Below, one piece after another: positions 23,968 through 54,931 of a DNA stretch of 64,000 nt. Within the stretch, counting starts at the first letter, position 1, and the number at the start of each line of letters is the position of its first letter. The stretch lies in the IMG/VR virus record IMGVR_UViG_3300020718_000007, positions 84,390 to 148,389 of that record; one strand, 5' to 3'. A program made the translations under genes and the position numbers. The notes under the pieces are model-generated. The model ran no database searches. It worked only from the letters and a program-made list of their open reading frames with translations, and had not been told where the DNA came from. This DNA is from a virus (Duplodnaviria; Heunggongvirae; Uroviricota; Caudoviricetes).

Positions 23968-25386
23968 ATGATAATCGACATTGAAAATTTAGGAGAATCG
24001 CTAAGAGTTTCCCATTATACGACAGAAGGGGATGTTGCTTTCTTAGATCTTCCAATCCCAGAGAGAGACCGATATGTTTGGAAAAGAGCATCTCCCGGAG
24101 ATAGAGGAGTTATTAAGGATTGGAAAACCTGGGATAAACAACCAGTAAAAGTCCAAAAGACACAAAAATATGATAAGTTTAGAATTACAGAAATTCTGGA
24201 ACAGTATGACAAAAAGGTAACCAAACCTTTATGGGAATATCAGACTCCACGAAAATATTGGGTGGATATAGAAGTTGAAGTTACCGATAATAAAGCGGAT
24301 TCCCTAGATACTTCAAAGGCAGCAAACAAAATACTAACATTAGCTATTGCATCTTCCTCTGGAAAGATACTTGCCTTAGGTTTAAAGAAATTAGAGCCCG
24401 ACCAAATCCTAAAAATAGAAAAGAAAGTAAACGAGCATTTCAAAAAATTTGATGCTAAGTGGACTTTTAATTATAGGAGTTTTGATAGCGAGTTTGATAT
24501 GATCTATACCTTCATGTCAAAACTAATGCACAAGATGCCATTAATAAGTGGATGGAACTGGTTTGGATATGACTGGCCTTATTTATTATCCAGAGCAAAA
24601 AGGTTAGGTATAGATCCTAAGATTTGTTCTCCAAGCGGAGTATTGTTAACTAAGCAACAAATCCCAATGCATGGTCTTATGGTCGATTACATGGAGATCT
24701 ATAAGAAATGGGATAGGGTAATAAAAGTTAGAGAAGCAAACTCTCTGGAATATGTTAGCCAAGCAGCATTCGGAGTAGGTAAAGTAAAATATAATGGTAA
24801 TTTAAAATCTCTTTATGAGGATGATTTTGAAAACTATGTATTCTATAATGCAGTTGACTCCTGCCTCTTAGATTATATTGACCACAAACTAAATACATTA
24901 TCAACTTTCTTTAAAATAGCATTGGTAACTGGTGTAGAAATTAATAGGGCACTATCTCCTGTATGGACAACAGAGGTTCTAATGTTAAGAGAATTCTTAT
25001 CCAGAAAGAGAGTTATTCTATACGAACAAAAGGACGAAGATACAAGAAAATTTGAAGGAGCGATTGTTAAAAATCCAATCAAAGGATTACATGAATGGAT
25101 TTCTCTTTATGACTATGCTTCTCTGTATCCAAATGCAATGATCCAGTTTGGTATCTCTCCTGAAATCTATATCGGCAAGGATTTAGAAAATCCGCCACCA
25201 GGATCATGGAAAACAGCATCCGGAGCATATTTCTGTCCAGAACCAGGTGAAGAGCCTGTATTGAGAAAAGTATTACAGACCTTATATGGTATGCGTAAAA
25301 CTACCAAAAGTAAGTATATGGATTGCGAAATGAAAATTGAAGAACTAAACAAAATATTAAAAAATAAAAAAACTCAAGTAGTATGA
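23968..25386 (+). CDS. gp43-N: family-B DNA polymerase, N-terminal fragment (3'-5' exonuclease motifs plus polymerase motif A), T4 gp43-like
   Basis: Exo I region DIEVEV, Exo II region FYNAVDSCLLDYID (T4: ISYNIIDVESVQAID), motif A LYDYASLYPNAMIQ (T4: FDLTSLYPSIIRQ); the ORF stops about 70 aa after motif A, with no motif B or C. Confidence 0.8.
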   Translation: MIIDIENLGESLRVSHYTTEGDVAFLDLPIPERDRYVWKRASPGDRGVIKDWKTWDKQPVKVQKTQKYDKFRITEILEQYDKKVTKPLWEYQTPRKYWVDIEVEVTDNKADSLDTSKAANKILTLAIASSSGKILALGLKKLEPDQILKIEKKVNEHFKKFDAKWTFNYRSFDSEFDMIYTFMSKLMHKMPLISGWNWFGYDWPYLLSRAKRLGIDPKICSPSGVLLTKQQIPMHGLMVDYMEIYKKWDRVIKVREANSLEYVSQAAFGVGKVKYNGNLKSLYEDDFENYVFYNAVDSCLLDYIDHKLNTLSTFFKIALVTGVEINRALSPVWTTEVLMLREFLSRKRVILYEQKDEDTRKFEGAIVKNPIKGLHEWISLYDYASLYPNAMIQFGISPEIYIGKDLENPPPGSWKTASGAYFCPEPGEEPVLRKVLQTLYGMRKTTKSKYMDCEMKIEELNKILKNKKTQVV

Positions 25387-25883
25387 AATCAGGAAATTTG
25401 TATTTTACAAAAACAAGAACAGTTAAAACACCGGCAAGGGGAACATCATCGTCGGCAGGAATAGATTTTTATGTACCAGAGGACTTTATCGAAGTTATGT
25501 TAGGTCCAGGTGATGATGTTTTAATTCCTTCTGGAATTAGAGTTAGAATTCCTGGAGGCTGCGTATTAACAGCATTTAATAAATCAGGAATAGCTACAAA
25601 AAAGAAATTGATTGTTGGTGCATGTGTAATAGATGAGGACTACACTGGCGAAATCCATTTACACTTAATAAACGCAGGAAAGGGAAATGTATCAATAAAG
25701 GCCAATGATAAAATAGCTCAGTTTATTTTGTCTCCTGTATTTTATACAGAACCAGAAGAAATTAATCAGGAGTCATATGAGTCTTTTGGTGAAACTTCTA
25801 GAGGAGCTGGTGGATTTGGTTCTACTGATAATGCCCCAACACTAAGTGGAGTTTCTGGGGTTTGTGGTTATCAAGGAACTTAA
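25383..25883 (+). CDS. dut: dUTPase
   Basis: SAGIDFYVP, RVRIPGGCVLTAFNKSGIA, GACVIDEDYTGEIHLHLIN and C-terminal RGAGGFGSTD match dUTPase motifs I-V; ATGA overlap with the polymerase fragment. Confidence 0.8.
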   Translation: MKSGNLYFTKTRTVKTPARGTSSSAGIDFYVPEDFIEVMLGPGDDVLIPSGIRVRIPGGCVLTAFNKSGIATKKKLIVGACVIDEDYTGEIHLHLINAGKGNVSIKANDKIAQFILSPVFYTEPEEINQESYESFGETSRGAGGFGSTDNAPTLSGVSGVCGYQGT

Positions 25884-25905
25884 AATAATCCTTTACTAAT
25901 CATTA

Positions 25906-25933
25906 AAAAGGCACCTTTTGGTGCCTTTTTTTA
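25906..25933 (+). terminator. rho-independent terminator
   Basis: AAAAGGCACC-TTTT-GGTGCCTTTTTTT. Confidence 0.55.
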
Positions 25934-37131: not shown

Positions 37132-38931
37132 ATGAAAGAAAACAACAAAGAAATAGAGGTGTTATCGGAGCGGGACCACATCAGGCTCAGACCAACGGTG
37201 TATGTTGGCAGCGTAAGACCTACCGAAGAGAAAATACCAATCATTAAAGACTGTAGAATATTTATAGAGCCAAAGACTATTTCTGTTGGCCTCTATAAAC
37301 TTTTTGATGAGGTGTTTTCCAATTCCTTAGATGAAGCAAAAAGGATGAAAGGTAAGATGAAATCTATAACTGTAAGTATAGATTCCAAAAAGAATTCCGT
37401 TACAGTAAAGGATACTGGTAATGGATTTTATAAGGGTAGTTCAAAAAATAAAGTATCTGGGCTTTCCAATATTGAAACTGCAGTTTCTCAATTAAGAGCA
37501 GGAACAAATTTTAAAAATGGCGAAGTTGAAGAAGCATTAGTTGGAACTAATGGTATGGGAGTAAGTCTTGTTAACGTACTCTCCAGAAAATTTTCAATAG
37601 TAACTACAAACGTTGAACATAAGTATGAACAACATTGGGATGATTACGAAAGGAGAGAGCCAATAATAACAAAGAATGAGGGTAATATTCCATTAGGAAC
37701 AGAGGTTACATTTGAACCTATAACAGATGCAAGTGTTTTTGGTAGGTCTAAATGGGATATGGAAATTATAAAAACCCAGCTTATTTTTAAATTACGCTTA
37801 ATCAAAAAAGATCCGGTTATTAATAATTTAAGTATAGATTTTTATTGGGATGGTATTAAAATACCTCTTGATATTTCTCTATATCCCAAAGGTTCGTTTT
37901 CATTAGAAACACCAATTGGAGAAGTAATTATTTGGGAAAAATATGAAGGTAGCGGTTCTATAAGTTTTGTTAACTCTGCGATGTGTACTGGTATACATCA
38001 AAGGATAGTAAATGAATTTATTAATGCTAAATTGGAAGATAGTTTAGGTCATCACTTTTATGATACCTTTATTTCTTTAAATCTTCAACCTAAACTAGTT
38101 CATTTTGGGGATCAAAATAAGACCAAGTTTATAACACCAAGGGAAGAAGTAGAACCAACTATATCCAGAACGATTCTTAGTAAGTTAGGAGCATTTTTCA
38201 AAACCGAATTATTTGCTTCTATACAAACAAAGGTAGAAGAAAGGAGAACAGAAGGACATGTTAAGAAATTAAGGGCAGAAAAGAGAAAGGTTAATGTTAA
38301 AAATTCTCATAAGTATTTCCCAGCAGGAAAGAATAATGCAGAAAACTTATTTATAGTGGAAGGATTATCAGCGATGGGCTCAATACTTCAAAAGAGGGAT
38401 CCAGATAGAGATGGCATCTATGCACTAAAAGGTAAGATTAAGAATTGTAGGAACCTTGGGGATCTTTCCGAAAACAAGGAAATTTTGGAGCTAATGCAAA
38501 TTCTTAATTTGGATCCTACACTTAAAACAGTCCACAGCATTTCCGGGTATAGAAGGGTGATAATAGCAACAGATGCTGACCCTGATGGTGCACACATTAC
38601 TTCGCTATTGATAAATATGTTCTTTAAATGGTTTCCTGGAGTAATTTCTTATGGTCAATTAAATACCTTAAGGACCCCTCTTGTTTCTGTAGGAGATAAG
38701 GCAAAAAGGAAGTATTTCTTTGAGCTGGATGATTTTAAGAAAGCTAAACCAGCTGGAAATGTTAGATACTTAAAAGGTCTTGGTTCATTGGATATTGCCG
38801 ACTGGGAATATGTAATGGCAAATAAGGATTTAGCAGTAATAACCTATGATCCTAAAGCAAAAGAATATTTGGATATGGCATTCGGAGATTCATCAGATCT
38901 ACGTAAAAAATGGTTAGCAGGTAAAATATAG
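37132..38931 (+). CDS. gp39: DNA topoisomerase II large subunit (GyrB-like ATPase plus toprim; T4 gp39/gp60 equivalents in one gene)
   Basis: GHKL ATPase region; toprim motifs VEGLSAMGS and ATDADPDGAHI. Confidence 0.8.
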   Translation: MKENNKEIEVLSERDHIRLRPTVYVGSVRPTEEKIPIIKDCRIFIEPKTISVGLYKLFDEVFSNSLDEAKRMKGKMKSITVSIDSKKNSVTVKDTGNGFYKGSSKNKVSGLSNIETAVSQLRAGTNFKNGEVEEALVGTNGMGVSLVNVLSRKFSIVTTNVEHKYEQHWDDYERREPIITKNEGNIPLGTEVTFEPITDASVFGRSKWDMEIIKTQLIFKLRLIKKDPVINNLSIDFYWDGIKIPLDISLYPKGSFSLETPIGEVIIWEKYEGSGSISFVNSAMCTGIHQRIVNEFINAKLEDSLGHHFYDTFISLNLQPKLVHFGDQNKTKFITPREEVEPTISRTILSKLGAFFKTELFASIQTKVEERRTEGHVKKLRAEKRKVNVKNSHKYFPAGKNNAENLFIVEGLSAMGSILQKRDPDRDGIYALKGKIKNCRNLGDLSENKEILELMQILNLDPTLKTVHSISGYRRVIIATDADPDGAHITSLLINMFFKWFPGVISYGQLNTLRTPLVSVGDKAKRKYFFELDDFKKAKPAGNVRYLKGLGSLDIADWEYVMANKDLAVITYDPKAKEYLDMAFGDSSDLRKKWLAGKI

Positions 38932-40377: not shown

Positions 40378-41538
40378 ATGGCGGCAGCAACGACTAAAAA
40401 CTACTATACCGCTCTTGGTGTAGAAAAAAATGCTAGTCTAGATGAGATTAAAAAAGCTTATAGAAAATTAGCAATGGAGTTACATCCGGATAGAAATCCT
40501 GGTGATAAAAAATCTGAAGAGAAATTTAAAGAAGTAGCAGAGGCTTATGAAACCTTATCTGATATAGATAAGAAAAGTAAATATGATAAGTCTTGGTCCC
40601 CTGGCTATGGATATGGAACACCACCGTCACCGCCAAAACCAGAATCTCCCTATGACGAATACGTAAGAAGGTCAGGTAAAAGGGAATCATATAATCCAAA
40701 TCCTTTCGGAGGTGGATGGGATGATCCTTTTAGTGATTTTGATACTTTCTTTAATGCCAGAACCTCTAAACAACCACCTCCAAAGAAAAAGAAAGGTCAG
40801 GGAATATCTATTAATATTCCTATAACTGTTGCTGAGATGGTAACTGGTGTACAAAAGAAAATCAAACTGAAACGTAATGTTAAGTGTGGACCATGTAAAG
40901 GTACAGGAGCGCAGGATGGAAAATCATTCCAGAAATGTGGACGTTGCGGTGGATCTGGTTGGGTAAGAAGAATAGAGGATTTTAGTTATGGTGGAAGTGG
41001 AAAACAAACCAGATGTGATCAGTGTAATGGAGAAGGAAAAGTAGTACTTGAATCTTGCCATGTATGTAATGGAGGAAAAACAGAACTAAAAGAGGATATT
41101 ATTGATATCAATATACCAGCAGGTTCTATTGCTGGTATGCAATTTATTATTGCAGGAAAAGGACATGAAGAAAATGGAGCAGCGGAACCAGGAGATTTAA
41201 TAGTTTTTATTAAGGAACTTAATGAAGATGAGTTTATTAGATCTGGAACAAATCTAAGAGTTATACACGAAATACCTTTATTAGATGCTATATTAGGTTG
41301 TAAGATCAAAGTGAAAATGCCAATGGGGGAAATAATACAAACTATTGTAGAGCCTGGTACTACCCATGGAACTATTTTACAATTTCCGGGTAAAGGAATA
41401 CCTGATATAGGTGCAGGAACTAAGGGTGACTTTTTGGTAGAAGTTCGTATTAAAATTCCTATACCAAAAACTAAAGAAGACTATGATTTATTAAGTGACT
41501 TGAAAAAGACTAAATTGTTTGGAAATGATAATGACTAA
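40378..41538 (+). CDS. dnaJ: DnaJ (Hsp40) co-chaperone, type I
   Basis: J domain [35 protein letters not shown] (HPD motif); Gly/Pro-rich linker; four CxxCxGxG Zn-finger repeats ([31 protein letters not shown]); C-terminal substrate-binding domains. Confidence 0.8.
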
Positions 41539-41891: not shown

Positions 41892-43319
41892 ATGAGCACA
41901 AAGAAAACAATCACAATCCCTGAACAAATCAATCAGGACTATCGAAAGTATGCCTTGTACGTAATACAAAGTAGGGGTATACCAAATTTTTATGACTGTA
42001 TAACTCCTGTACAACGACTCATTTTACAAAATGCACCATCTACGTTTTCAAAAACTCCTGGTGTAATTGGTAGTGTATTTAGTACTGGATTATATCACCA
42101 CGGAGATTCCTCGTTGGCTTCCGCAATTTCTAAGTTGGCTAGACCATTTGGATGTTCGGAACAGATAATGGAGGGTGACGGATTCTTCGGAACTCCAGTA
42201 AATCCTAGACCAGCAAGTGCAAGGTATACCATGGTGAAAATTGTTCCTAAATATAGAAATATGTTAGAGGAATATAAGGATCTAAATATGCCCAATGAAG
42301 AAGGTGGATATGATTGGCTTAATGTAACATATCCGATTGGATTATCAACACATATTGTTGGTATTGCAGTAGGATATAGTTCTAACATCCTTCCAAGAAA
42401 ACAGGAAGAGGTAGAAGCTTATTTACAAGGAGATACTACTAAGAAATTAAAACCTTACTTCAAAGGATTTAGGGGTAAAATATCAAAGATAGAAGGACTT
42501 AAATCTTCCTGGTTAATAGAAGGAGAATTCTCGGTTAATAAGCCAAACAAAACTATTCAAATAATGAGCCTTTCTCCATTAGCTCGTTATGATAGTTTTA
42601 TTACTAAGATAGGTTTACTTCTTGATAATAAAGGTGTAGATTATCGTATAGAGAATAGATCAAAAGATGAAGTAGAAGTAACCATTAAATTAAAATGTTC
42701 CGATACCGAATTTGATGAAATTGCTACTAGAATCCAAAGAGAAACACAAAAAATAGTAACGGAAAATATAGTTTTTGTTAAAGATGGGTTAGTAATGGAA
42801 TATGAAAGTATCCAAGAATACTTAGACCAATTTAGAGTTCATAGAGAAGAAGTTACTTATAAAAGGTTAGTAAAGGATCTTTATTATAATGATAGGGAAT
42901 TAGCATTTCAGGAAGCTAAATTAAAGTTTCTGGTATTCATGCAAGCTAAGAAAAGGCTTAATGATGAAATAATGGAATTTCTAAAGCCTTATGATACCTG
43001 GATAAAATCACGATTGGAAGCTATTACGTTAGTTAAGTTGTCCGAGAAGGAAATAGAAATAACAAAACTAAAGATAGAAGAATTAAAAGCCACTGCTCTT
43101 GAAATTAAGGCAGCTATGAAGAATCAGGCTAATAAATGGGCAGCGATTAAAAAGGCATGGGAACAAGCAGCAAAATCTAAACCTAAACAATCTACTTTAA
43201 TGTTAGAAACAGCAGGTGAGGCTTTTGATGGTATTGAAATTTGGAATCCAGAAGAAGCAATGATACCAGAAGAAGATGAAGCAAGTATTCTTGATGACGA
43301 AGAAGGAATAGAAAACTAA
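41892..43319 (+). CDS. gp52: DNA topoisomerase II medium subunit (GyrA-like breakage-reunion domain), T4 gp52 family
   Basis: active-site Tyr context PASARYTMVKI (GyrA: AMRYTE); winged-helix region ITPVQRLIL. Confidence 0.75.
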   Translation: MSTKKTITIPEQINQDYRKYALYVIQSRGIPNFYDCITPVQRLILQNAPSTFSKTPGVIGSVFSTGLYHHGDSSLASAISKLARPFGCSEQIMEGDGFFGTPVNPRPASARYTMVKIVPKYRNMLEEYKDLNMPNEEGGYDWLNVTYPIGLSTHIVGIAVGYSSNILPRKQEEVEAYLQGDTTKKLKPYFKGFRGKISKIEGLKSSWLIEGEFSVNKPNKTIQIMSLSPLARYDSFITKIGLLLDNKGVDYRIENRSKDEVEVTIKLKCSDTEFDEIATRIQRETQKIVTENIVFVKDGLVMEYESIQEYLDQFRVHREEVTYKRLVKDLYYNDRELAFQEAKLKFLVFMQAKKRLNDEIMEFLKPYDTWIKSRLEAITLVKLSEKEIEITKLKIEELKATALEIKAAMKNQANKWAAIKKAWEQAAKSKPKQSTLMLETAGEAFDGIEIWNPEEAMIPEEDEASILDDEEGIEN

Positions 43320-43346: not shown

Positions 43347-44117
43347 ATGAAAAATAACGAAACCAAATTGAAATTTAGAATTACTAATTCTGGTAATTTA
43401 ATATCATTCCTAAACAAAATAAAGTCTGTAGACAAATCTGTTATTTTGGAATTAGATGGAACACAATTTTTTGCAAAGGTTAGAACTGCAGATAAATCGG
43501 TTATTAAATATGTTAGTATTGATACTTCAGACTTCATGGAAGGAGAAGTTCCTAAGGGTAGAGTAAAAATCGGAATTATGGAACTCAATAAGATTATTAA
43601 TGCGTTCAAATATTTTGGACCAGAGGAGGAATCTTATATTGAGCTAACAGTAGAACCGGTTGACAAAAATATATTGGCAACTTCTATGAAGATTTTCTCT
43701 AAGTCTATCAAGATTAATATTCGATGTGCTGATATAGACTTACTAACCTACATGGATGATAATATCCAGAAAACAATTCATTCCACAGAAGGATATTTAA
43801 TAGGATTTCCAGTTACCAAGGAAGCCTTTACAAAAATAGTTTCTTTAAGTGGGATGGAAAACAATTCGGAGGAGTTGTTAAATTTTGATGTTTATAGCAA
43901 TAGGCTAGTTGTTAGGGGTAATTCGTTTGAATATAACCTAATAAGGGAGCAAGATATACAAGGCTATAAAGAGGATGGAACTTATACAATTTATAAGAAC
44001 CAGTTTTCCAGTATTGACCAAGAAAATTCTATGTTCTATATCCACGAAAATAGAGTAATAGTTTTATCACAAGAGTCCGAGTCACAAATAGCAATTGGAC
44101 GTGTAGAAATGGAGTAA
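43347..44117 (+). CDS. hypothetical protein, possibly sliding clamp (gp45-like) by position and size
   Basis: 256 aa; sits immediately upstream of the polymerase C-fragment as gp45 sits near gene 43 in T4; only weak N-terminal resemblance. Confidence 0.25.
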   Translation: MKNNETKLKFRITNSGNLISFLNKIKSVDKSVILELDGTQFFAKVRTADKSVIKYVSIDTSDFMEGEVPKGRVKIGIMELNKIINAFKYFGPEEESYIELTVEPVDKNILATSMKIFSKSIKINIRCADIDLLTYMDDNIQKTIHSTEGYLIGFPVTKEAFTKIVSLSGMENNSEELLNFDVYSNRLVVRGNSFEYNLIREQDIQGYKEDGTYTIYKNQFSSIDQENSMFYIHENRVIVLSQESESQIAIGRVEME

Positions 44118-44119
44118 TT

Positions 44120-45286
44120 ATGAATCAAGACTATAATAACCTTTCCATAGAGGAAATTGAAGCAGAAATAGCTAGGTTACAGGCACTTTCTAAAGACTAC
44201 AAAAATGAGGAACAAGGAATTAAATTAACCCTTAACTCAATATATGGAGCGCTTGGAAATCAATGGTTTGCATTATTTAACCTAGAAGTAGCAGAAGCTG
44301 TAACAATGCAAGGCCAGGATCTATGGAAATATGCAGAAAAAATCATTAACAGGTATTTCCACCAACACTGGCACCTGGATACAGAGCTACACGAAAAGTT
44401 AGGACTTAAAAATGTCAAACCAATAACAGTAGATATGGTTATCTACGGAGATACCGATAGTAACTATGTGAATATTGGTGCAGCATTAGATTCCTGTGAT
44501 TTTGAAGGTAATCCTTTGGACTTTGTATTGAAATTAGATGAATATAGGCTAAGGGGCTATATTAAGAAATGTTTGGACTTATATGCAGAAAAATGGAATA
44601 CTCAGAATTATCAGGATTTTGAATTAGAAAGTATTTCCAAAAATGGTATATTTCTTGGTAAAAAGAAAAACGTATTAAATGTTGCATGGGAATCTTCAGG
44701 ACATGACCAATTAGAAGATTTAAGTAAGGTAAAATATACAGGAGTAGAAATGGTAGTCGGCGGAACTGCACCCTTCGCCAGACTTCACTTAAAAAGTCTT
44801 GTAAACCACTTCTTTAAAAGGGGTAAGTCTTTTGACCTTCGGGAATTTGTGAAAATGCTAAGAGTAATCAAGTCGGATTTTAAATTACAAAAACCAGAAG
44901 ATATTTCAGTATCCATGAACGTAAATAATATGGAACAATATATCCTTTGTGATACATCCAGATTTGAAGTGGCTTCTAAATGTCCAATGCACGTAAGAGC
45001 TGCAGGGTATCATAATTTTATCCTAAACAACTCTAAATACAAGCAAAAATACACGCTAATTCGTTCTACAGATAAGATTAAGTTTTATTACGTAAAGGTC
45101 GGTAGCAAGCTCGAAAACAATGTTTTCGGTTATCTTGTAGGGGCTTATCCTTACGAGTATGCTCTGCCAATTGATATGGAGGAACAATTTAATCGTACAA
45201 TTTTGGACCCTATTAATAGGTTTTTAGAAGCTATGGGTTATCCCCCATTGAATTCAAATCTACTATTAGTGCATGCTTTATTTTAA
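44120..45286 (+). CDS. gp43-C: family-B DNA polymerase, C-terminal fragment (motifs B and C plus thumb), T4 gp43-like
   Basis: motif B KLTLNSIYGALGN (T4: KILINSLYGALGN), motif C IYGDTDSNYV; the ORF begins about 35 aa before motif B. Confidence 0.8.
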   Translation: MNQDYNNLSIEEIEAEIARLQALSKDYKNEEQGIKLTLNSIYGALGNQWFALFNLEVAEAVTMQGQDLWKYAEKIINRYFHQHWHLDTELHEKLGLKNVKPITVDMVIYGDTDSNYVNIGAALDSCDFEGNPLDFVLKLDEYRLRGYIKKCLDLYAEKWNTQNYQDFELESISKNGIFLGKKKNVLNVAWESSGHDQLEDLSKVKYTGVEMVVGGTAPFARLHLKSLVNHFFKRGKSFDLREFVKMLRVIKSDFKLQKPEDISVSMNVNNMEQYILCDTSRFEVASKCPMHVRAAGYHNFILNNSKYKQKYTLIRSTDKIKFYYVKVGSKLENNVFGYLVGAYPYEYALPIDMEEQFNRTILDPINRFLEAMGYPPLNSNLLLVHALF

Positions 45287-46394: not shown

Positions 46395-46736
46395 ATGAAT
46401 AAAGAGGAAACAAAAAAATCAATAGACGACTTTATAAAGGAGTGGGAAGACTATAAAAACGAGTCAGAGGATGGCAAATTGAGGTTTTTCAAAAGTTATT
46501 GGTTTATAACGGATTATAGTAAACCAGCACCCAATATTGAATCTTTGGGCTCTACTGGTGAATCAGATCCGACAATAGATTATTTTACTTGGGCTATGAA
46601 AAAACAGTCCAAAATACCATTTAAACAATTTAAAAATGAGTTACGTAGTAGTGGACTGCGAGAGCGATGGTCCAATTCCTGGAAAATATTCCTTGGTAAG
46701 CTTTGGTGCGGTAATAGTAGAAAAAAGCTTAACTAA
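46395..46736 (+). CDS. hypothetical protein (its 3' 100 nt overlap the next gene in another frame)
   Basis: 113-aa ORF; the unusually long overlap suggests a frameshift or fusion with the exonuclease gene. Confidence 0.3.
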   Translation: MNKEETKKSIDDFIKEWEDYKNESEDGKLRFFKSYWFITDYSKPAPNIESLGSTGESDPTIDYFTWAMKKQSKIPFKQFKNELRSSGLRERWSNSWKIFLGKLWCGNSRKKLN

Positions 46737-47154
46737 GACATTTTATGCCGAAACTAAACCGATTTCGGATATTTGGATACCAGAAGCATTAGCAATATCT
46801 GGATTTACCAGAGAGCAACATTTAGCATTTCCTGAGCCCAAGGAAGCAATGATACGATTTAAAAAGTGGCTGCAAGAAAATAGTAAAGGACATCCCGTCT
46901 TTATCTCCGACAATTTGGCATACGACTGGCAATGGATTAATTGGTATTTCCATACTTATTTAGAGGAAACCCCCCTTGGCTTTTCTGGTAGAAGAATTGG
47001 TGATATTTATTGTGGCCTCGTTAGTGATTCTCGAGCAAAATGGAAACATTTAAGGAAAACATATCATGATCATAATCCGGTCAATGATGCTAAAGGTAAT
47101 GCAGAAGCTCTTTTACGGATGCAAGAAATGGGCTTAAAAATTAAATTTGAGTGA
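46636..47154 (+). CDS. DEDDh 3'-5' exonuclease (DnaQ/RNase T-like)
   Basis: Exo I VVVDCESDGP, Exo II ISDNLAYDW, Exo III HDHNPVNDAKGNAEAL. Confidence 0.6.
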   Translation: MSYVVVDCESDGPIPGKYSLVSFGAVIVEKSLTKTFYAETKPISDIWIPEALAISGFTREQHLAFPEPKEAMIRFKKWLQENSKGHPVFISDNLAYDWQWINWYFHTYLEETPLGFSGRRIGDIYCGLVSDSRAKWKHLRKTYHDHNPVNDAKGNAEALLRMQEMGLKIKFE

Positions 47155-48212: not shown

Positions 48213-48285
48213 GGTGAGGTAGCTCAGTTGGTAGAGCGCAGCCCTGAAGAGGCTGGCGTCGGGGGTTCGAGTCCCTCCTTCACCA
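48213..48285 (+). tRNA. tRNA-Phe (anticodon GAA)
   Basis: manual cloverleaf: acceptor GGTGAGG/CTTCACC, D arm GCTC-AGTTGGTA-GAGC, anticodon stem CAGCC/GGCTG with loop CTGAAGA, T arm GGGGG-TTCGAGT-CCCTC. Confidence 0.8.
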
Positions 48286-48326
48286 CTCAAGACGGGAAAA
48301 GTACTGATACCCGCCGTGAACAAAGT

Positions 48327-48345
48327 CCTCGGTTCGTAACCGAGG
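48327..48345 (+). other. inter-tRNA spacer hairpin
   Basis: CCTCGGTT-CGT-AACCGAGG, 8-bp stem. Confidence 0.3.
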
Positions 48346-48351
48346 CAAACT

Positions 48352-48422
48352 ACGGGCGTAGTTCAATGGTAGAATATCGGTCTCCAAAACCGCAGATGGG
48401 GGTTCGAGTCCTTTCGCCCGTG
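48352..48422 (+). tRNA. tRNA-Trp (anticodon CCA)
   Basis: acceptor ACGGGCG/CGCCCGT, anticodon stem CGGT/ACCG with loop CTCCAAA, T arm GGGGG-TTCGAGT-CCTTT. Confidence 0.7.
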
Positions 48423-48430
48423 CCGCGAAA

Positions 48431-48470
48431 CTTTTGCACTTTTCTTGGATATATAGAATAAAACACTATT
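48431..48470 (+). repeat. direct repeat copy 1 (~40 nt, CTTTTGCACTTTTCTTGGATATATAGAATAAAACACTATT) upstream of the GIY-YIG gene
   Basis: near-identical copy at 49769-49809; contains an ATATATAgAATAAAA late-promoter-like core. Confidence 0.7.
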
Positions 48471-49109
48471 ATGCCAAGGGAAAGAAAAGTTTACAAATAT
48501 CATTTTATTTATAAAACTACAAACATTAAGAATGGTAAATTTTATATTGGAATGCACTCCACTGATAACTTAGATGATGGTTATTTAGGAAGTGGAGAAA
48601 AATTAAGAAGTTCTATAAGACATTATGGAAAAGAGAATCATCATAGGGAAATATTAGAATTTTTACCTAATAGGAAAGAATTATCTAATAGAGAAGAGGA
48701 AATAATAAATGAGAAATTTTTGGAAAATCCTCTTTGTTTAAATTTAGCAATTGGAGGCGAAGGATCAGGTGATAGCTTTAATTATGTTAATAGTATCTAT
48801 TGGAAATTACCAGAAAACAAAGAAAGAATTAGCAAATTAGTTAGTGAATTTAATATCAAAAATTGGAATAATTTAGATTCTAATAAAAAGAAGGAGAGAT
48901 TAAAAAATCTTAATTTTTCTAATAAAAGTCATACTAAAGAAGCTAAAGAACAGATAGGTAAGAGTAATTCAATAAAACAAAAAGGAGAGAAAAATTCCCA
49001 ATTTGGTAAAATTTGGATTACTAAAGAAAATGAAGAGAAGAAAATTATCCAATCAGAATTTGAAAATTATTCTAAGATAGGTTGGATAAGAGGAAGAAGG
49101 GGGAGGTAG
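48471..49109 (+). mobile_element. GIY-YIG homing endonuclease gene (copy A) inserted between tRNA genes
   Basis: KYHFIYKTTNIKNGKFYIGMHST...DGYLGSG; the stop codon (49107-49109) lies inside the 5' acceptor/D region of the following tRNA-like gene. Confidence 0.7.
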
Positions 49110-49185
49110 CTCAGTTGGTTAGAGCATGTAATGTTCCGGGATCCTGGACTTACGCCGGTCGCTGGTTCGAGTCCAGCCCTCCCCA
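49100..49185 (+). tRNA. 86-nt tRNA-like gene with canonical acceptor, D and T arms but an 18-nt segment in place of the 7-nt anticodon loop (isotype unassigned)
   Basis: acceptor GGGGAGG/CCTCCCC, D arm GCTC-AGTTGGTTA-GAGC, T arm GCTGG-TTCGAGT-CCAGC; anticodon stem TGTAA/TTACG encloses TGTTCCGGGATCCTGGAC, which folds into a further 4-bp helix with a 9-nt loop; no U33 register available. Confidence 0.4.
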
Positions 49186-49277
49186 CTAGGAAATTGAAGA
49201 TCCAGGTGAGCACTCTTGGTGTGTTTGAAAGAGTAACACAAAGCATGGTTTGCATAATGCGTCAGTTTCCTTAAATC

Positions 49278-49361
49278 GGTAATGTAGCTGAGTTGGTTGC
49301 GAAAGCATATAGCGCTTGGTCTGAAAAACCAGAGACGTCGGTTCGATCCCGATCATTACCA
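49278..49361 (+). tRNA. 84-nt tRNA-like gene with a Phe-type anticodon arm (GAA) and a ~12-nt GNRA-hairpin insertion in the D loop
   Basis: acceptor GGTAATG/CATTACC, anticodon stem TTGGT/ACCAG with loop CTGAAAA, T arm GTCGG-TTCGATC-CCGAT; the D region GCTG-AGTTGGTTGCGAAAGCATA-TAGC contains the mini-hairpin TGC-GAAA-GCA. Confidence 0.4.
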
Positions 49362-49366
49362 CATAT

Positions 49367-49439
49367 TCTCCTTTAGCTCAGTTGGTAGAGTGGAGGCACT
49401 ACAAGCCTTAGGTCGTTGGTTCGAGTCCAGCAGGGAGAA
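49367..49439 (+). tRNA. tRNA with anticodon UAC (Val-like) and noncanonical C33
   Basis: acceptor TCTCCTT/AGGGAGA, anticodon stem GAGGC/GCCTT with loop ACTACAA, T arm GTTGG-TTCGAGT-CCAGC. Confidence 0.5.
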
Positions 49440-49447
49440 CATTAAAA

Positions 49448-49522
49448 GCACCTTTAGCTCAGTTGGTTCAGAGCAACGCCCTTACAAGGCGTGGGTCACT
49501 GGTTCGAATCCAGTAAGGTGCA
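49448..49522 (+). tRNA. tRNA-Val (anticodon UAC)
   Basis: acceptor GCACCTT/AAGGTGC, D arm GCTC-AGTTGGTTCA-GAGC, anticodon stem ACGCC/GGCGT with loop CTTACAA, T arm ACTGG-TTCGAAT-CCAGT. Confidence 0.8.
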
Positions 49523-49528
49523 CAATAA

Positions 49529-49601
49529 GGTCCGGTGGACAAGCGAGCAAGTCGTTTCCCTTTCACGGAAAAGATCACGGGTTTGAATCCCGTCCGGATC
49601 A
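49529..49601 (+). tRNA. tRNA-Glu (anticodon UUC)
   Basis: acceptor GGTCCGG/CCGGATC, anticodon stem TTTCC/GGAAA with loop CTTTCAC, T arm ACGGG-TTTGAAT-CCCGT. Confidence 0.75.
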
Positions 49602-49608
49602 CAAATAA

Positions 49609-49680
49609 CACCCATTGGACAAGTGGTTAAGTCGTCTCCCTTTCACGGAGGAGACAGGGGTTCGAATCCCCTATGGGTGA
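49609..49680 (+). tRNA. tRNA-Glu (anticodon UUC), second divergent copy
   Basis: acceptor CACCCAT/ATGGGTG, anticodon stem TCTCC/GGAGG with loop CTTTCAC, T arm AGGGG-TTCGAAT-CCCCT. Confidence 0.7.
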
Positions 49681-49690
49681 CAATTAAAAA

Positions 49691-49762
49691 GGTACCGTAT
49701 TTCAGCGGTAGAATGGCAGCTTGTCAAGCTGCAGGTCACGGGCTCGAATCCCGTCGGTACCT
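49691..49762 (+). tRNA. tRNA-Asp (anticodon GUC)
   Basis: acceptor GGTACCG/CGGTACC, anticodon stem GCAGC/GCTGC with loop TTGTCAA, T arm ACGGG-CTCGAAT-CCCGT. Confidence 0.75.
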
Positions 49763-49768
49763 CGCTAC

Positions 49769-49809
49769 GATTTCGTACTTTTTCTTGGATATATAGAATA
49801 AAACACTAT
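49769..49809 (+). repeat. direct repeat copy 2 (GATTTCGTACTTTTTCTTGGATATATAGAATAAAACACTAT) upstream of the second GIY-YIG gene
   Basis: matches 48431-48470 with a few substitutions; the homology continues into both ORF starts (ATGCCAAG). Confidence 0.7.
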
Positions 49810-50466
49810 ATGCCAAGAAAAAAACACGAATATCATTATATTTACAAAACTACAAACATCCTAAATAACCGATATTATATAGGAATGCACTCTACCTCTA
49901 ATTTAGAGGATGGGTATTTAGGATCTGGTAGGAGAATAAGGGATTCAATAAATAAGTATGGTAAAGATAATCATATTAAGGAGATTTTGGAATTTTTACC
50001 AAATAGGAAGTTCTTAACTTTACGGGAGGAAGAAATAGTAAATAATGAATTATTAATTGATCCGTTATGTATGAACCTTAGAATAGGAGGAGATCCAGGA
50101 GCTACTGAATGGACGATAGAACAAAGAATATTGGGAGGTAAAAATGGTGGATTTAATACAGCTAAGAGTGAAAAGGAAAATCCGGTAATAGCTAAAAATC
50201 AATGGAATAATAGGTCTTTAATTATGAAAGAATGCCATCGTTTAGGTAAAATAAAATATGATACTTTTACTGGTAAAAAACATAACGAAGAATCTAAGAA
50301 ATTGATAGGAACTAAAAATTCAAATAAACAAAAAGGAATAAAAAATTCTCAATATGGAACAATTTGGATTAACAAAGATGGTATTGATAAAAAAGTAAAA
50401 AAAGAATACTTCTCTAATTATTTAGAAGAAGGATGGGTAAAAGGAAGAAATAAAAAGGTCTTGTAG
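49810..50466 (+). mobile_element. GIY-YIG homing endonuclease gene (copy B, paralog of 48471-49109)
   Basis: EYHYIYKTTNILNNRYYIGMHST...DGYLGSG; same N-terminal and C-terminal architecture as copy A; its stop codon (50464-50466) lies inside the 5' end of the following tRNA-Asp. Confidence 0.7.
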
Positions 50467-50531
50467 GGGAGTTGGCCGTCCCCGTCGCCCTGTCACGGCG
50501 AAGATCGCGGGTTCAAATCCCGTCGAGACCG
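50457..50531 (+). tRNA. tRNA-Asp (anticodon GUC), second divergent copy
   Basis: acceptor GGTCTTG/CGAGACC, D arm GGGG-AGTTGGCCGT-CCCC, anticodon stem TCGCC/GGCGA with loop CTGTCAC, T arm GCGGG-TTCAAAT-CCCGT. Confidence 0.7.
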
Positions 50532-50539
50532 CTAAATTT

Positions 50540-50610
50540 GGAGTGTTAGTTTAATTGGCTCGAATACCCTTGCGATCGGGGGAGATGAGGTTCAAGTCCT
50601 CTACATTCCG
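50540..50610 (+). tRNA. tRNA-like element (good acceptor and T arm; D and anticodon arms do not fold canonically; isotype unassigned)
   Basis: acceptor GGAGTGT/ACATTCC, T arm GAGG-TTCAAGT-CCTC; a possible loop TTGCGAT (GCG) lacks a proper stem. Confidence 0.3.
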
Positions 50611-50840
50611 CAAATAGAGTAGAAATGGCAAAGATTATTTTCCAAAAGAAAAAGGCATAGAAATTATTAGAAGATAAGAAATCTAGATTTTCTCTATTCG
50701 TTAAGAAGAATAACGAATTAAAGACTTTGGGAAGGGACTACATAGAAGGTGAAGTAGAAGAACTATATGTATTTTTCCAAAGCGGAATAGACCCAGAATG
50801 GGAGGGAAGGATGGGGACATTATTATAATAAGGTTAGTCA

Positions 50841-50872
50841 TCGCACGCGTGCGCTCACGCACACGCTCGCAC
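50841..50872 (+). repeat. GC-rich palindromic element TCGCACGCGTGCGCTCACGCACACGCTCGCAC
   Basis: 12-nt perfect palindrome CGCACGCGTGCG plus CGCAC-type repeats in an AT-rich intergenic region 26 nt upstream of the 50899 gene. Confidence 0.5.
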
Positions 50873-50898
50873 TTCTTATTATTATACAAAAATAAAAA

Positions 50899-51498
50899 AT
50901 GCCGGTAGGGAACTTCAAATGTAGTTATTGTAATAAACTATTCAATAATGGAAAATCCTTAGGAGGACATAAAACTTGGTGTGAAAGTAATCCTTTAAAT
51001 AAAGAAACCAGGAAAAAATTATCAGATATAGCAAAAAACCAAACTTGGACTAAAGAAAGTAGAGAAAAAGCATCTATAAAAAGAATTACTGTTATTGAAA
51101 AATCTGGTATAATTGGAGGATTCAAAGGTATAAAATGCTTTAATGTTAAATGTGAATCCACTGGAATTAATTATATAGTTAGAGGAACTTGGGAATTAAG
51201 AGTTGCAATGTTTTTGAATAGAAATGGTATAATTTGGGAAAATAAAAATAGAATCAGTTATAACGATAACGGAATACTCAGAAATTATTTACCTGATTTT
51301 TATTTACCTTTTGAGAAAATATATTTGGAAGTAAAAGGATACTTTAAGATTAAAGATAAAATTAAAATGAACTTAGTTAAGGAACAAACAAATTTAAATA
51401 TCTATATTATTGATAAGTATATTATATCAAAAATAGAAAATACTAATAATTTAGAATCCATATTAACTAAAAAATATCAGGGGAATGGGACTGCATAG
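50899..51498 (+). mobile_element. putative endonuclease gene with N-terminal C2H2-like Zn finger and C-terminal PD-(D/E)XK-like motif (paralogous C-terminus to the 35742-36992 gene)
   Basis: CSYCNKLFNNGKSLGGHKTWC zinc finger; LPDFYLPFEKIYLEVKGYF matches IDIYIIPDNKVIEVKSEF in the minus-strand gene. Confidence 0.4.
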
Positions 51499-51932
51499 GA
51501 GTGGTCACCTCACTTGCACTGAGGAAAACAGAGGGAATCGTTCTCCCTATTCTCCACCAAAAATAACTCAATATGAGAGAACTAACACCAGAAATACTAA
51601 TTGAATTAGGTTATAAAAGATGGAACAATGGTAGTCCATATAACGTTGGCACTAGGGAAAACAAAAAAGAAAACCGACAAATAAAAAACCAATACAATGG
51701 AACAGAATAAAGGAGGGACCACGCCGGTCGCACAAAAGACCAGAAATTAAAAGAGATTTCTGGTCGTGTAGGAACAAGACACCAGAGGAAACTAAGGAAG
51801 TACTCTGAAGGATTTAATGAGAAATTCCATTTCTTTTTTAAGTCATATCGAACAGGCATTTTAACTTTCTGTGGAGAAGCAGTAGAACCCCAATTCAATA
51901 TTAATGAGGTTAATGCAAAAGAAGGCTTTAGA

Positions 51933-52280
51933 TTGTACGATGATGGACATTACAGTATGGGTAAGAATAAAATGGTTACCTGCCATCCAAATGTACTTAA
52001 AGCGGTAGTAACAGGCAAAAAAGCTTGGGGACTTTGGCTTGATCAATGGACAGATGGAATAGTAGAATGGAGTTTTACCGTAGAAGAAATTCTTGGTGAA
52101 TTTAAAATCCAGGGAATTAAAATTCCAGAATCGTTTTTAAAAGATTTCCATAATAGACTACAAAAGAAGAAGGATAAAAGAGACCTAGCTTACTTAGATC
52201 AACTAAGAAAAGAAAGAATAGGAAAGGTCTACGAATATCCAGGATGCAATTGTAGAGTAAAAATAAAATCATTGAAATGA
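51933..52280 (+). CDS. hypothetical protein
   Basis: 115-aa ORF. Confidence 0.3.
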   Translation: MYDDGHYSMGKNKMVTCHPNVLKAVVTGKKAWGLWLDQWTDGIVEWSFTVEEILGEFKIQGIKIPESFLKDFHNRLQKKKDKRDLAYLDQLRKERIGKVYEYPGCNCRVKIKSLK

Positions 52281-52455
52281 GCAACAGATCAAACAGAGAA
52301 ATAGCCGACATCGATACCCTGTTAAGTACCGGTCACCTATTAAGTAAGTACATTGAAAAAATGAATGCTATTAAAAAACTAGCTGCAGATTATCCAAATG
52401 ATTTAGAATTTGGAACTAAAGTAAGGGCTTTGATAGAAGGTAAAATTATCCAATA

Positions 52456-52653
52456 ATGACAAAGGAAGAATTTCTCTCGCTTAAAAAAGGTGAGTCCGTA
52501 TTTTACTGCGGATCCTCCTATACTATTTTTGATTTACATCCAAGGTGTAATACCATTGTATTATTTCAGAAATGCTATAGGAGGAAGAAAGGATTTCACA
52601 ATATGGAGGTTAAATACACATTTTGTAATAGATTCGGTAGCTCAGTTGGTTAG
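52456..52653 (+). CDS. hypothetical small protein whose 3' end overlaps tRNA-Val
   Basis: 65-aa ORF; its last 23 nt overlap the tRNA 5' end. Confidence 0.3.
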   Translation: MTKEEFLSLKKGESVFYCGSSYTIFDLHPRCNTIVLFQKCYRRKKGFHNMEVKYTFCNRFGSSVG

Positions 52654-52704
52654 AGTATTACCATGACAAGGTAAGGGTCGGGAGTTCGAATCTCCCCTGG
52701 ATCA
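52631..52704 (+). tRNA. tRNA-Val (anticodon GAC)
   Basis: acceptor GATTCGG/CTGGATC (two G-U pairs), D arm GCTC-AGTTGGTTA-GAGT, anticodon stem TTACC/GGTAA with loop ATGACAA, T arm GGGAG-TTCGAAT-CTCCC. Confidence 0.7.
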
Positions 52705-52723
52705 CATTAATAAAACAATTTTT

Positions 52724-53047
52724 ATGAGTAACAGTAGAAGATATTATGTCTATATGAAGAGCGGAAGGAAATTCTGCGTAGAAGAATATGGTGATCCTCA
52801 TATAAAATGGGGTAATATTGATCCTGCTACAAAGAGGCTGGAAATAGTTAAATCCAAGGATGATGAGATTATAGACAAAACTAATACTTTCATTACCAAA
52901 GAAAATGGTTTCCGTAATATTTGTATGTTGGAAATGGGAACATCGCCAATGGCTTATATTGAAGCCTTAGATGACAGTGGAGTGGAAAGGTTCGAAGGAG
53001 CCGATTTTGTAACTTATGAAGATCCAATATTAATAGGAGAGGGATAA
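52724..53047 (+). CDS. hypothetical protein
   Basis: 107-aa ORF. Confidence 0.35.
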   Translation: MSNSRRYYVYMKSGRKFCVEEYGDPHIKWGNIDPATKRLEIVKSKDDEIIDKTNTFITKENGFRNICMLEMGTSPMAYIEALDDSGVERFEGADFVTYEDPILIGEG

Positions 53048-53054
53048 ATATAGC

Positions 53055-53525
53055 ATGTGCTTAAATCCATCTAATAAATATTGTCCTCTTTGTAAAAAAG
53101 ATCTGGATATATCAAATTTCAAAATAAGAAAACAATATGGTAAAAATCATTATAACTCATATTGTAATACTTGTAAGAGAGATAAATTAACCAATTACAA
53201 GAATAATAAAAGATCTACAAAGGAAGGAATTTTATATTACAATTTATCCAATTATAAAAATACAGATAAGAGGAGAGGATTTAACTTTGATTTAGATTTG
53301 AAATTTCTTATTGAACTTTGTAGTAAACCATGTATATATTGCGGGGATACAGAAAAAATAGGAGCGGATAGAATTGATAATAATAAAGGGCACACGAAAG
53401 ATAATGTAGTTCCCTGTTGTTTTAGTTGTAATAAAACTAGATTAGACCTTTATTCATTTGAGGAGATGCTAATTTTAGGAAAGGCAATACGGGAAATTAA
53501 ACTTAGAAGAAGATGTACTACTTAA
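53055..53525 (+). mobile_element. HNH homing endonuclease gene
   Basis: N-terminal CxxC...CxxC Zn ribbon; HNH core CIYCGDTEKIGADRIDNNKGHTKDNVVPCCFSCNK. Confidence 0.65.
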
Positions 53526-54289
53526 TACAAAAAAACACCTGGGGAGAAAGGAACTACGATCGAATGATCGAAGGCCTCGAAAGGTTGGGTATGGGGTACG
53601 AAATCTGTAGATTTATACCTTTCATACACGAAGTTGAATTTGAAACTGACAGAAAGGACATTTGGTGTTTTGGTGCATATTCTATGACCAATACGGCACA
53701 GAAGTACGGATGGACTCCTGGTACTATGGCTAATGAAAATCATGACCTTGAAGTATATGGACCTAAGTATGGAGAGCATATGTTGAACCACGAAGGTATT
53801 TGTATGGAATTTACAGATCCTTTGCCAGATAGCGAAGAGTATGATATGTTTTTTGCTCGTCCAACAAAGGACACTAAAATGTTTTCTGGTCAAGTATTTA
53901 TGAGAGATGCTTGGGATGCTTATGTAGCAAAAACCAAAGCTAATGATACCAGTGCCCTAATCTCTGCCGAAAGTAGGATTTTGATAAGCCCACTGAAAAA
54001 TATCCACCAGGAAATTCGTTGTTGGGTAGTAAATGGAAAGGTAATTACTATTAGTCAATATAAATTAGGCTATAGAGTTACTTATCAAAATTTGGACCAT
54101 GACGAAGAAGCAATGGCATTCGCACAAAAGATGGTTGATATATTTCAACCAGCAAAAGCATTTGTTATTGATATTTGTAGGACAAGTGAAGGAATGAAAG
54201 TCGTAGAAGTTAACTGTATTAATAGTGCAGGATTTTATGATATGAATTTCCAAAAACTGATAATGGCATTGGAAGAAGAATTTAATTAG
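53513..54289 (+). CDS. ATP-grasp-fold protein (phage R2K-like clade?)
   Basis: C-terminal EIRCWVVNGKVITISQY ... AFVIDICRTSEGMKVVEVNCINSAGF fits the ATP-grasp catalytic strands. Confidence 0.4.
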   Translation: MYYLIQKNTWGERNYDRMIEGLERLGMGYEICRFIPFIHEVEFETDRKDIWCFGAYSMTNTAQKYGWTPGTMANENHDLEVYGPKYGEHMLNHEGICMEFTDPLPDSEEYDMFFARPTKDTKMFSGQVFMRDAWDAYVAKTKANDTSALISAESRILISPLKNIHQEIRCWVVNGKVITISQYKLGYRVTYQNLDHDEEAMAFAQKMVDIFQPAKAFVIDICRTSEGMKVVEVNCINSAGFYDMNFQKLIMALEEEFN

Positions 54290-54510
54290 TATGGGACCAG
54301 GAACACGAGTTAAAATGTCAAAGAAGTTAAAAAGATGCTACGTTCTAATGGCTCTGGTGATCACGTAAAAGAGTTTGGAAGGTGCGAAGGAATTGTAGGA
54401 GAGCATCTCTCACACAATGGAATAGATTGGCCAGAAGTAAATGTAAAATGGGAACCATCTGGACTTAGATACGGGTATTTACCAGAGTACTTAGAAGTAG
54501 TAAAATAAAT

Positions 54511-54583
54511 ACCCTGTTGGTGCAACGGCTAAACATAACGGCTTCCAACCCCGCAGATACAAGTTCGAATCTTGTACAGGGTT
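54511..54583 (+). tRNA. degenerate tRNA-like element (Gly-UCC-type loop CTTCCAA, weak anticodon and D stems)
   Basis: perfect acceptor ACCCTGT/ACAGGGT and T arm ACAAG-TTCGAAT-CTTGT; internal direct repeat AACGGCT x2; alternative pairing GTTGG/CCAAC. Confidence 0.35.
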
Positions 54584-54599
54584 CAATTATAAACAAACT

Positions 54600-54740
54600 A
54601 AAAGTCTACAGGAACTTTACCCTGTGTGCAGTAGAGATTAACTAGATAGGATTAACCAGGCTGGGCTTGATAAGCCGGCATTCCGGGTGCAAACCCCAGG
54701 CGTCCCCCGAAACATGATGCGGATGTAATGGTAATAGTTA
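54600..54740 (+). ncRNA. GC-rich structured non-coding region, candidate small stable RNA (analogous to the T4 species 1 and 2 RNAs in its tRNA region)
   Basis: no ORF; composition departs from the AT-rich background; nested helices CTGGG...CCCAG enclosing GCCGG-CATT-CCGGG. Confidence 0.25.
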
Positions 54741-54777
54741 ATCGGCAGTATTATTAAGTGAACTAAACTTTTTAATT

Positions 54778-54927
54778 ATGTGTAAGATCAGACCCGGAAA
54801 CAAGATCAACTCCTGGCTAAATGGAGAATGGGCAAAACATGGCAAACCTTTTGGAAAGAAAAAGGCAGCCAGTAAAAGAAGAATGCTGGATAAGAAAATT
54901 ATCCGGGATTCTCTGCAGGAAGAATAA
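54778..54927 (+). CDS. possible small basic protein (49 aa)
   Basis: MCKIRPGNKINSWLNGEWAKHGKPFGKKKAASKRRMLDKKIIRDSLQEE; below the ORF-track size cut-off. Confidence 0.25.
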   Translation: MCKIRPGNKINSWLNGEWAKHGKPFGKKKAASKRRMLDKKIIRDSLQEE

Positions 54928-54931
54928 AATT

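Follow-up and report, generated by a model that had tools for sequence, protein, structure and literature searches.

The DNA analysed here is a stretch of 64,000 nucleotides (positions 84,390 to 148,389 of the IMG/VR virus record IMGVR_UViG_3300020718_000007, Caudoviricetes), hereafter referred to as the window, which represents 64 kb of a phage genome of about 474 kb. Two genes of the window, both located on the + strand, very probably encode a T4 gp43-type replicative family B DNA polymerase (PolB) that is made as two separately translated chains, most likely associated non-covalently. The chains are designated the N half (472 amino acids, aa) and the C half (388 aa).

Tiling of the two halves on gp43

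The features of the two polymerase genes were identified as follows.

23968..25386, + strand: N-terminal half of PolB, 472 aa, with the N-terminal and 3'-5' exonuclease domains, the first palm segment with motif A, and the first fingers helix
24262-24276, 24550-24582 and 24844-24861, + strand: motifs ExoI (VDIEV), ExoII and ExoIII of the N half, respectively
25111-25134 and 25294-25308, + strand: polymerase motifs of the N half, motif A (DYASLYPN) and fingers R..K, respectively
25258..25374, + strand: helix at the tail of the N half, residues 431-469, forming the first of the two hairpin helices of the fingers, assigned by DSSP in model m9c45c21699c3 and corresponding to about residues 470-508 of RB69
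44120..45286, + strand: C-terminal half of PolB, 388 aa, ATG start, stop included, with the second fingers helix carrying motif B, the second palm segment carrying motif C, the thumb, and the C-terminal tail
44147..44263, + strand: helix at the head of the C half, spanning its residues 10-48 and forming the second of the two hairpin helices of the fingers (482-520 in the joined model, by DSSP)
44222-44257, + strand: motif B, KLTLNSIYGALG, residues 35-46, inside the head helix of the C half
44444..44461, + strand: motif C, YGDTDS, residues 109-114, with the catalytic aspartates, uninterrupted in the window
45257..45283, + strand: C-terminal tail NLLLVHALF, candidate clamp-binding peptide, aligning with the RB69 tail SLFDMFDF

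Both products were recognized as parts of PolB by several independent comparisons. Against Pfam, the N half matched the exonuclease family PF03104 and profile positions 16-145 of PF00136, and the C half matched PF00136 (DNA_pol_B) at profile positions 150-237 (E 7e-16). Residues 169-465 of the N half align to residues 185-501 of T4 gp43, and residues 12-299 of the C half align to residues 537-812 of RB69 gp43 in a phmmer search of PDB sequences (E 5e-15). Each half matched one PHROG family of half-size proteins, phrog_2062 for the N half and phrog_1918 for the C half, and both matched phrog_262, at positions 70-501 and 492-839 of 856, respectively. When RB69 gp43 was compared with the whole window by tblastn, its residues 188-510 were found at 24472-25380 and its residues 514-812 at 44120-45016, and nothing else matched. 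In the MAFFT alignment of RB69 gp43, the N plus C halves of the window, and the 43A plus 43B proteins of phage 44RR, the junction of the window proteins falls after RB69 residue 511 and that of 44RR after residue 512.

All the expected motifs are present, ExoI to ExoIII, motif A and the fingers Arg/Lys in the N half, and motifs B and C in the C half. Because motif A is carried by one half and motifs B and C by the other, neither half has a complete active site. For RB69 we take the fingers to span residues 469-572 and the palm residues 383-468 plus 573-729; with these boundaries, a junction after residue 511 places the break at the tip of the fingers hairpin, leaving one fingers helix and a part of the palm on each side. 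The part of the junction that is unaligned to gp43 comprises only seven residues from the N half and 11 from the C half, compared with about 32 residues in RB69, so that the fingertip is shorter here.

The structure was modelled with AlphaFold on the direct concatenation of the N and C halves, using 30 N-half and 61 C-half sequences aligned without pairing. In the resulting joined model (m9c45c21699c3; predicted local distance difference test score 75.8, predicted template modelling score 0.60), two helices of 39 residues each (431-469 and 482-520) flank the junction, which itself lies in a low-confidence loop. The best PDB matches of the model were all full-length gp43 of RB69 or T4, aligned over the whole length (E about 1e-32 to 1e-28, template modelling scores 0.54-0.58).

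The preliminary description of the window had assigned the reading frame at 44120..45286, with motifs B and C, to the C-terminal part of a polymerase, an assignment borne out by the Pfam match, the phmmer alignment with RB69, and the motif positions. It had correctly set the start about 35 aa ahead of motif B (residues 35-46) and just past an upstream clamp-like gene, of which the TAA at 44115-44117 is followed by tt and then by the ATG at 44120. The N half, which ends with ...KIEELNKILKNKKTQVV, is the N-terminal fragment quoted there, and the proposed complementarity of the two fragments agrees with the tblastn, PHROG, MAFFT, and joined-model results, by which they tile a single PolB fold without overlap or loss. 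The same description had pictured the helical and charged termini of the fragments as a zipper. The termini are indeed helical and amphipathic, but the charge complementarity between them is modest: the head of the C half is acidic in every relative and carries a net charge of -2.5 on average, and the N-half tail averages +0.8. The zipper idea is thus only partly right, because these termini are the ordinary antiparallel helix pair of PolB fingers and no added dimerization module, because the fingertip is shorter than that of RB69, and because the palm would also be needed. The shared palm, built from segments of both halves, would have to supply much of the interface.

Conservation and genomic arrangement of the two genes

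Both halves are conserved as proteins of nearly constant size. The 120 best C-half homologues range from 366 to 392 aa in length, with at least 59% identity, and the 120 best N-half homologues from 449 to 480 aa, with at least 52% identity. Motif B and the DTDS of motif C are present in all 120 of the former; the latter all have ExoII and ExoIII, while motif A is conserved in 99% of them and ExoI, when a strict pattern is applied, in 91%. The catalytic motifs of both halves are kept across hundreds of homologues, down to about 33% identity. The C-terminal tail follows the pattern L[LF][LM][VI]x[AST]L[FY], nearly invariant across the 120 C-half homologues, and from the biology of T4 and RB69 it is predicted to bind the sliding clamp.

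In an exhaustive search of 1.84 billion cluster representatives (50% identity), a total of 267 matches below 1e-30 were obtained. The 150 representatives nearest to the C half consist of 126 complete stand-alone C halves, eight fused full-length polymerases, and 16 fragments. The fused relatives (P0349, P0360, P0375, P0403, P0412, P0422, P0461, and P0482; 29-46% identity) have a continuous loop of variable length exactly at the position of the window's junction. They sit singly among the split forms in a neighbour-joining tree of C halves, which is star-like, carries no support values, and is of qualitative use only; this scattering suggests repeated re-fusion or repeated splitting.

Among sequenced phages, the best matches came from the Prevotella Lak megaphages and from the huge phages LR756500-LR756504 and LR745206, which are 462-735 kb in size. 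All of these genomes have the N and C matches at separate places, with a single N place and a single C place except for LR756500, in which the C match is in two pieces. The spacing between N and C is about 10 kb on the same strand in LR756500, and on opposite strands it is 101 kb in LR745206, 115 kb in LR756501, 132 kb in LR756502, 221 kb in Lak-A2, and 281 kb in LR756504. In closer relatives the halves share a strand, and their spacing is 15.4 kb on a contig of 271 kb and 22.9 kb on one of 453 kb. The preliminary description had counted on the absence of a full-length gene 43 elsewhere in the genome. This holds insofar as no other PolB is present in the window and the complete genomes of the relatives each have one N place and one C locus; the remaining 410 kb or so of the approximately 474 kb lies outside the window.

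The elements next to the two polymerase genes are listed below.

25383..25883, + strand: dUTPase (PF00692, E 1e-23), the start of which overlaps the stop of the N half (ATGA)
25905..25930, + strand: terminator-like hairpin closing the unit of N half and dUTPase, an 11-bp stem followed by a T run
43347..44117, + strand: sliding clamp of 256 aa with the gp45/PCNA fold, ending 2 nt 5' of the C half
44111..44114, + strand: GGAG, Shine-Dalgarno-like, 5 nt ahead of the ATG and within the end of the clamp gene, in the sequence GAAATGGAGTAATTATG

The gap between the N half and the C half is 18,733 nt on the same strand, and about 18 kb of other genes on this strand separate the dUTPase from the clamp gene. 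The unit of the N half is flanked by terminator-like hairpins at 23146-23171 and 25905-25930; all the sub-threshold Rfam matches at the latter are to small RNAs that bear terminators. The C half is located at the end of a long same-strand run beginning at 37132, and no convincing terminator was recognized in this run. Since the N unit is bounded by hairpins and the C half belongs to the separate run from 37132, the two halves are probably on different transcripts. A scan for sigma-70 promoters was uninformative, giving fewer matches than in shuffled sequence.

The protein of 43347..44117 has the two-domain clamp fold. With the clamp gene ending immediately upstream, and with the GGAG as its putative Shine-Dalgarno element, the C half would be translationally coupled to the sliding clamp gene. 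No clamp-loader gene was recognized among the scanned open reading frames (ORFs) of the 64-kb window. The order of N half and then dUTPase is also found in Sphingomonas phage PAU and in the 453 kb relative, and the pair of clamp and C half is kept down to 60% identity and in PAU. Outside the freshwater group, PAU is the one phage in which this pair was recognized. BLAST comparison of the window clamp with PAU gp109, LR756500, LR756504, and Lak-A2 gave no matches; in LR756504, only a 125-aa ORF lies 5' of the C half. A small DnaQ/RNase T-like exonuclease of 172 aa (46636-47154), a member of phrog_192 ("DNA polymerase exonuclease subunit"), is encoded 1.3 kb 3' of the C half.

Known split polymerases and alternative explanations

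PolB enzymes made in two pieces have been described in several settings. Splitting of gp43 at the fingertip is reported for the T4-like Aeromonas phages 44RR, 31, 25, and 65 and Acinetobacter phage 133, in which 2 bp to 3 kb separate the two cistrons (PMC3061061), and in phage 25 the 43A protein is reported to co-purify with 43B and the two to have polymerase activity (PMC2988022); the work on these phages is cited there to Petrov et al. 2006 and 2010. The 43A/43B pairs of 44RR, 25, 31, 65, and 133 resemble the window genes in that a gp43-type PolB is specified by two cistrons without an intein, and the sizes are alike, 498 plus 391 aa in 44RR and 472 plus 388 aa in the window. The two systems differ in the layout of the genes, which does not concern the enzyme itself. 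The 43A and 43B cistrons are adjacent, whereas the genes of the window, at 18,733 nt from each other, are not; in 44RR, gene 45 is separated from 43A by regA and the clamp-loader genes 62 and 44, whereas in the window the C half directly follows the clamp. The gp43 of 44RR is 52.8% identical to the unsplit RB69 enzyme but only 25% to the window protein. From these identities, with which the unsupported neighbour-joining tree agrees, the T4-like split and that of the window are most likely independent events at the same permissive loop.

A compact form of the arrangement was found in the cultured jumbo phage PAU, in which the N half (gp105, 487 aa) is followed by a dUTPase (gp106) and then three genes ending with the clamp (gp109), and the C half is gp110 (404 aa). 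The PAU halves are 26-28% identical to the window proteins and only 2.4 kb apart, and the window keeps both PAU pairings, that of N half then dUTPase and that of clamp then C half. The Chryseobacterium phage MA9V-1 also carries two PolB ORFs, ORF135 and ORF138, about 2.2 kb apart (PMC10537231). PAU and MA9V-1 thus probably share the same lineage-specific split as the window. Both PAU ORFs are annotated as polymerase in GenBank, and the PAU and MA9V-1 papers likewise annotate both ORFs as polymerase and describe no split enzyme (for MA9V-1, PMC10537231). Iyer et al. (PMC7824862) refer to the enzyme of this group as a "classic family B polymerase", and the main text of the Lak paper is silent on the polymerase. 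With incomplete search coverage, the literature yielded no explicit account of a two-piece PolB for the lineage of PAU, the Lak phages, and the huge phages.

Outside the phages, the PolB of Methanothermobacter thermautotrophicus is encoded by two genes 85 kb apart and was reconstituted as a two-subunit enzyme (PMC3061061, citing Kelman et al. 1999). According to the same source, this archaeal cellular enzyme is broken in the palm, at a point some 83 residues to the C-terminal side of the fingers position, whereas the window's enzyme is broken within the fingers, on the N-terminal side of motif B. When Pfu polymerase was split by accident in its fingers, the fragments formed a stable 1:1 complex with wild-type kinetics (PMC3061061). 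Its full activity in this form indicates that a break in the fingers needs no extra joining device, even though the Pfu split is artificial, arose with coupled translation from an overlapping stop and start (ATGA), and lies within helix O, in contrast to the tip loop of the window.

The alternative explanations tried (ALTERNATIVES), namely a split intein, introns, stop-codon recoding, and a pseudogene or separate function, were each contradicted by the data. The PolB of Nanoarchaeum is a "fractured" gene with a split intein. In genes of this type an essential polymerase is encoded in separate pieces as in the window, but these pieces carry N- and C-intein halves and are ligated, and both intein halves are missing from the window junction. 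It is extremely improbable that the halves of the window are likewise ligated post-translationally by protein trans-splicing. A split intein does occur in the same polymerase of related megaphages (Lak-A2 and LR756500), but at motif C, and the stand-alone C halves of 27 nearest representative clusters contain insertions of 80-400 aa, mostly near motif C. In the window, Pfam recognized only PolB domains and no Hint/intein domain in either half. The HN plus Ser/Thr/Cys expected in the right place at the head of the C half is absent from the window and found in three of 120 homologues, a frequency consistent with chance. Because only seven plus 11 residues are unaligned to gp43, there is no space for intein halves at the junction, and the known fingertip-split gp43s function without splicing. 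As a positive control, the split-intein motifs at motif C of Lak-A2 and LR756500 were readily visible.

In these two phages the C half itself is in two pieces, at 3959-4780 and 5136-6110 in Lak-A2 (MK250019.1) and at 15401-16186 and 17863-18816 in LR756500.1. The motif-C break reads ...DTD|S..., the first piece containing the block B TGDHS and the second about 43 aa ending with YDIEVDD(N)THTF(F/I)ANDIL(A/V)HN and then Ser. To judge from these motifs, Lak-A2 and LR756500 have a three-gene polymerase, of which the fingertip break is left unrepaired and the motif-C break would be repaired by protein splicing. The C halves with insertions include P0348, P0356, P0359, P0370, P0382, and P0387, mostly at query positions 110-114 (motif C), and the insertions at these positions probably represent contiguous inteins occupying the site of the Lak-A2 split.

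A further alternative is that the halves are joined at the level of RNA or DNA, by trans-splicing intron halves or programmed rearrangement, or that their separation is only an assembly artefact. Polymerase genes of huge phages are often interrupted by group I introns and homing endonucleases (PMC12880540), and GIY-YIG endonuclease ORFs are present in the window. Nevertheless, the Rfam scan of the whole window at the gathering threshold gave 14 tRNAs only, and permissive scans of both junctions gave no intron. Both halves have start and stop codons of their own: the N-half stop overlaps the dUTPase start, and the C half begins with ATG and is preceded by GGAG. The 18.7 kb gap is full of same-strand genes, and the spacings in relatives are 15.4 kb and 22.9 kb. 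The identical C-half protein with the same neighbours was found in four independent assemblies, an ENA assembly (a 473,921-bp contig), two JGI freshwater metagenomes, and a Logan assembly, and the separation is therefore no assembly artefact. Altogether, next to no credence can be given to this explanation. Recoding of stop codons in the Lak style (TAG read as Gln) was also rejected as the cause of fragmentation. TAA, TAG, and TGA end 41, nine, and six long ORFs, respectively, ORFs of at least 60 aa on the + strand cover 87% of the window under code 11, and recoding could not explain the split in any case because the halves are 18.7 kb apart.

Several observations weigh against a two-chain replicative polymerase, and some of them would suit the alternative that one or both halves are decaying or function separately, for instance as a stand-alone exonuclease, with another polymerase replicating the genome. 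Since the window is 64 kb of about 474 kb, another replicative polymerase may be encoded elsewhere, and a second, minimal Pol III alpha-like polymerase, itself split, has been reported in related jumbo phages by Iyer et al. (PMC7824862). The equivalent of the KKRY motif in the C half (44657-44674) reads GKKKNV, that is, KKKN; KKKY is found in 115 of the 120 homologues and Asn, at the position of RB69 Tyr708, in only four. The joined model is only moderately confident and is poor in the palm segments 359-399, 518-536, and 653-686, which may stem from the unpaired alignment; because that alignment was unpaired and the halves were modelled as a single joined chain, the interface between them is not independently predicted by the model. 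Finally, equal expression of the halves is not guaranteed, as they are probably in different transcription units. Decay or separate function is nonetheless quite improbable. The catalytic motifs and tight lengths are conserved in hundreds of homologues of both halves, every complete genome of a relative has one N place and one C locus (in two pieces in LR756500), no complete active site is present in either half by itself, and the C half, which lies beside the clamp gene, has a conserved tail of clamp-binding type.

Because the junction is without intein, intron, or spare residues, a non-covalent two-subunit polymerase is the best explanation. The N half would provide the N-terminal domain, the proofreading exonuclease, motif A of the palm, and the first fingers helix, and the C half the second fingers helix with motif B, motif C of the palm, the thumb, and the putative clamp-binding tail, with the break falling in the variable fingertip loop. 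The two chains are predicted to associate into a 1:1 non-covalent enzyme with polymerase activity through contacts that exist within single-chain PolB, namely those of the antiparallel fingers helices and the shared palm, and the assembly would proceed as for 43A/43B of some T4-like phages and for engineered split Pfu. The C half would be translated in coupling with the clamp gene, and the N half from another transcription unit together with the dUTPase.

Neighbouring genes and implications

The region between the two halves includes genes for two giant multidomain proteins, one with GT1 and an FkbM methyltransferase (1148 aa, 25956-29402) and the other with PLOD-GT, GT2, and GT9 (1065 aa, 29404-32601). 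Together with a further GT2 enzyme at 34011-35237, they resemble a large glycan-modification cassette in a phage. An adenylate kinase is also encoded between the dUTPase and the clamp gene. The subunits of topoisomerase II, GyrB-like (599 aa, 37132-38931) and GyrA/gp52-like (475 aa, 41892-43319), are about 3 kb apart, and a full-length zinc-finger DnaJ (40378-41538) is encoded in between.

Elsewhere in the window, a gp32-like SSB (10286-11245), two RNA-ligase-domain proteins (17119-19005 and 56098-57165), and a homologue of the RNA-repair nucleotidyltransferase RlaP (59388-60719) indicate a T4-like replication module and an RNA-repair gene set. A total of 14 tRNA genes at 48213-55017 are interleaved with two paralogous GIY-YIG-type ORFs (48471-49109 and 49810-50466), and one of them, a tRNA-Tyr at 49278-49362, has the unusual anticodon ATA as predicted by ARAGORN. 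A free-standing ORF resembling a homing endonuclease, with GIY-YIG and NUMOD3 (13637-14407), is located between unknown genes and a UvsW-like helicase (14579-15940).

Two-piece polymerases cut at the same fingertip are already known to work, and the mechanism is not new. What sets the case of this giant freshwater phage apart is that the genes are unlinked, that the split is conserved throughout the clade, and that the C half is putatively coupled to the clamp gene. A broader proposal, which has a small chance of being correct, is that the PAU-like phages, the Lak phages, and the freshwater group of about 474 kb form a large, ancient clade of jumbo and mega phages that replicate obligately with a PolB encoded by two genes, the halves being unlinked by 2.4 to about 280 kb, also on opposite strands, with the C half coupled to the clamp in the PAU-like and freshwater members examined, and that the separation is possibly functional and not neutral. 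If so, the half with thumb and palm could assemble first on the clamp, and the exonuclease half could be recruited later or regulated separately. The looser fingers domain might also tolerate modified nucleotides, as split Pfu does gamma-phosphate analogues.

For the annotation of huge-phage genomes, the finding means that two "partial" PolB genes would stand for one replicative polymerase and not for pseudogenes or duplicates, with bearing on gene calling, PolB-based phylogenies, and completeness checks of megaphage bins. At least two phage lineages have a broken gp43-type fingertip, most likely through independent events, after which the halves would be free to drift apart. The Lak-type split intein at motif C offers a natural contrast within the same enzyme, in which one break would be tolerated unrepaired and the other would need protein splicing.

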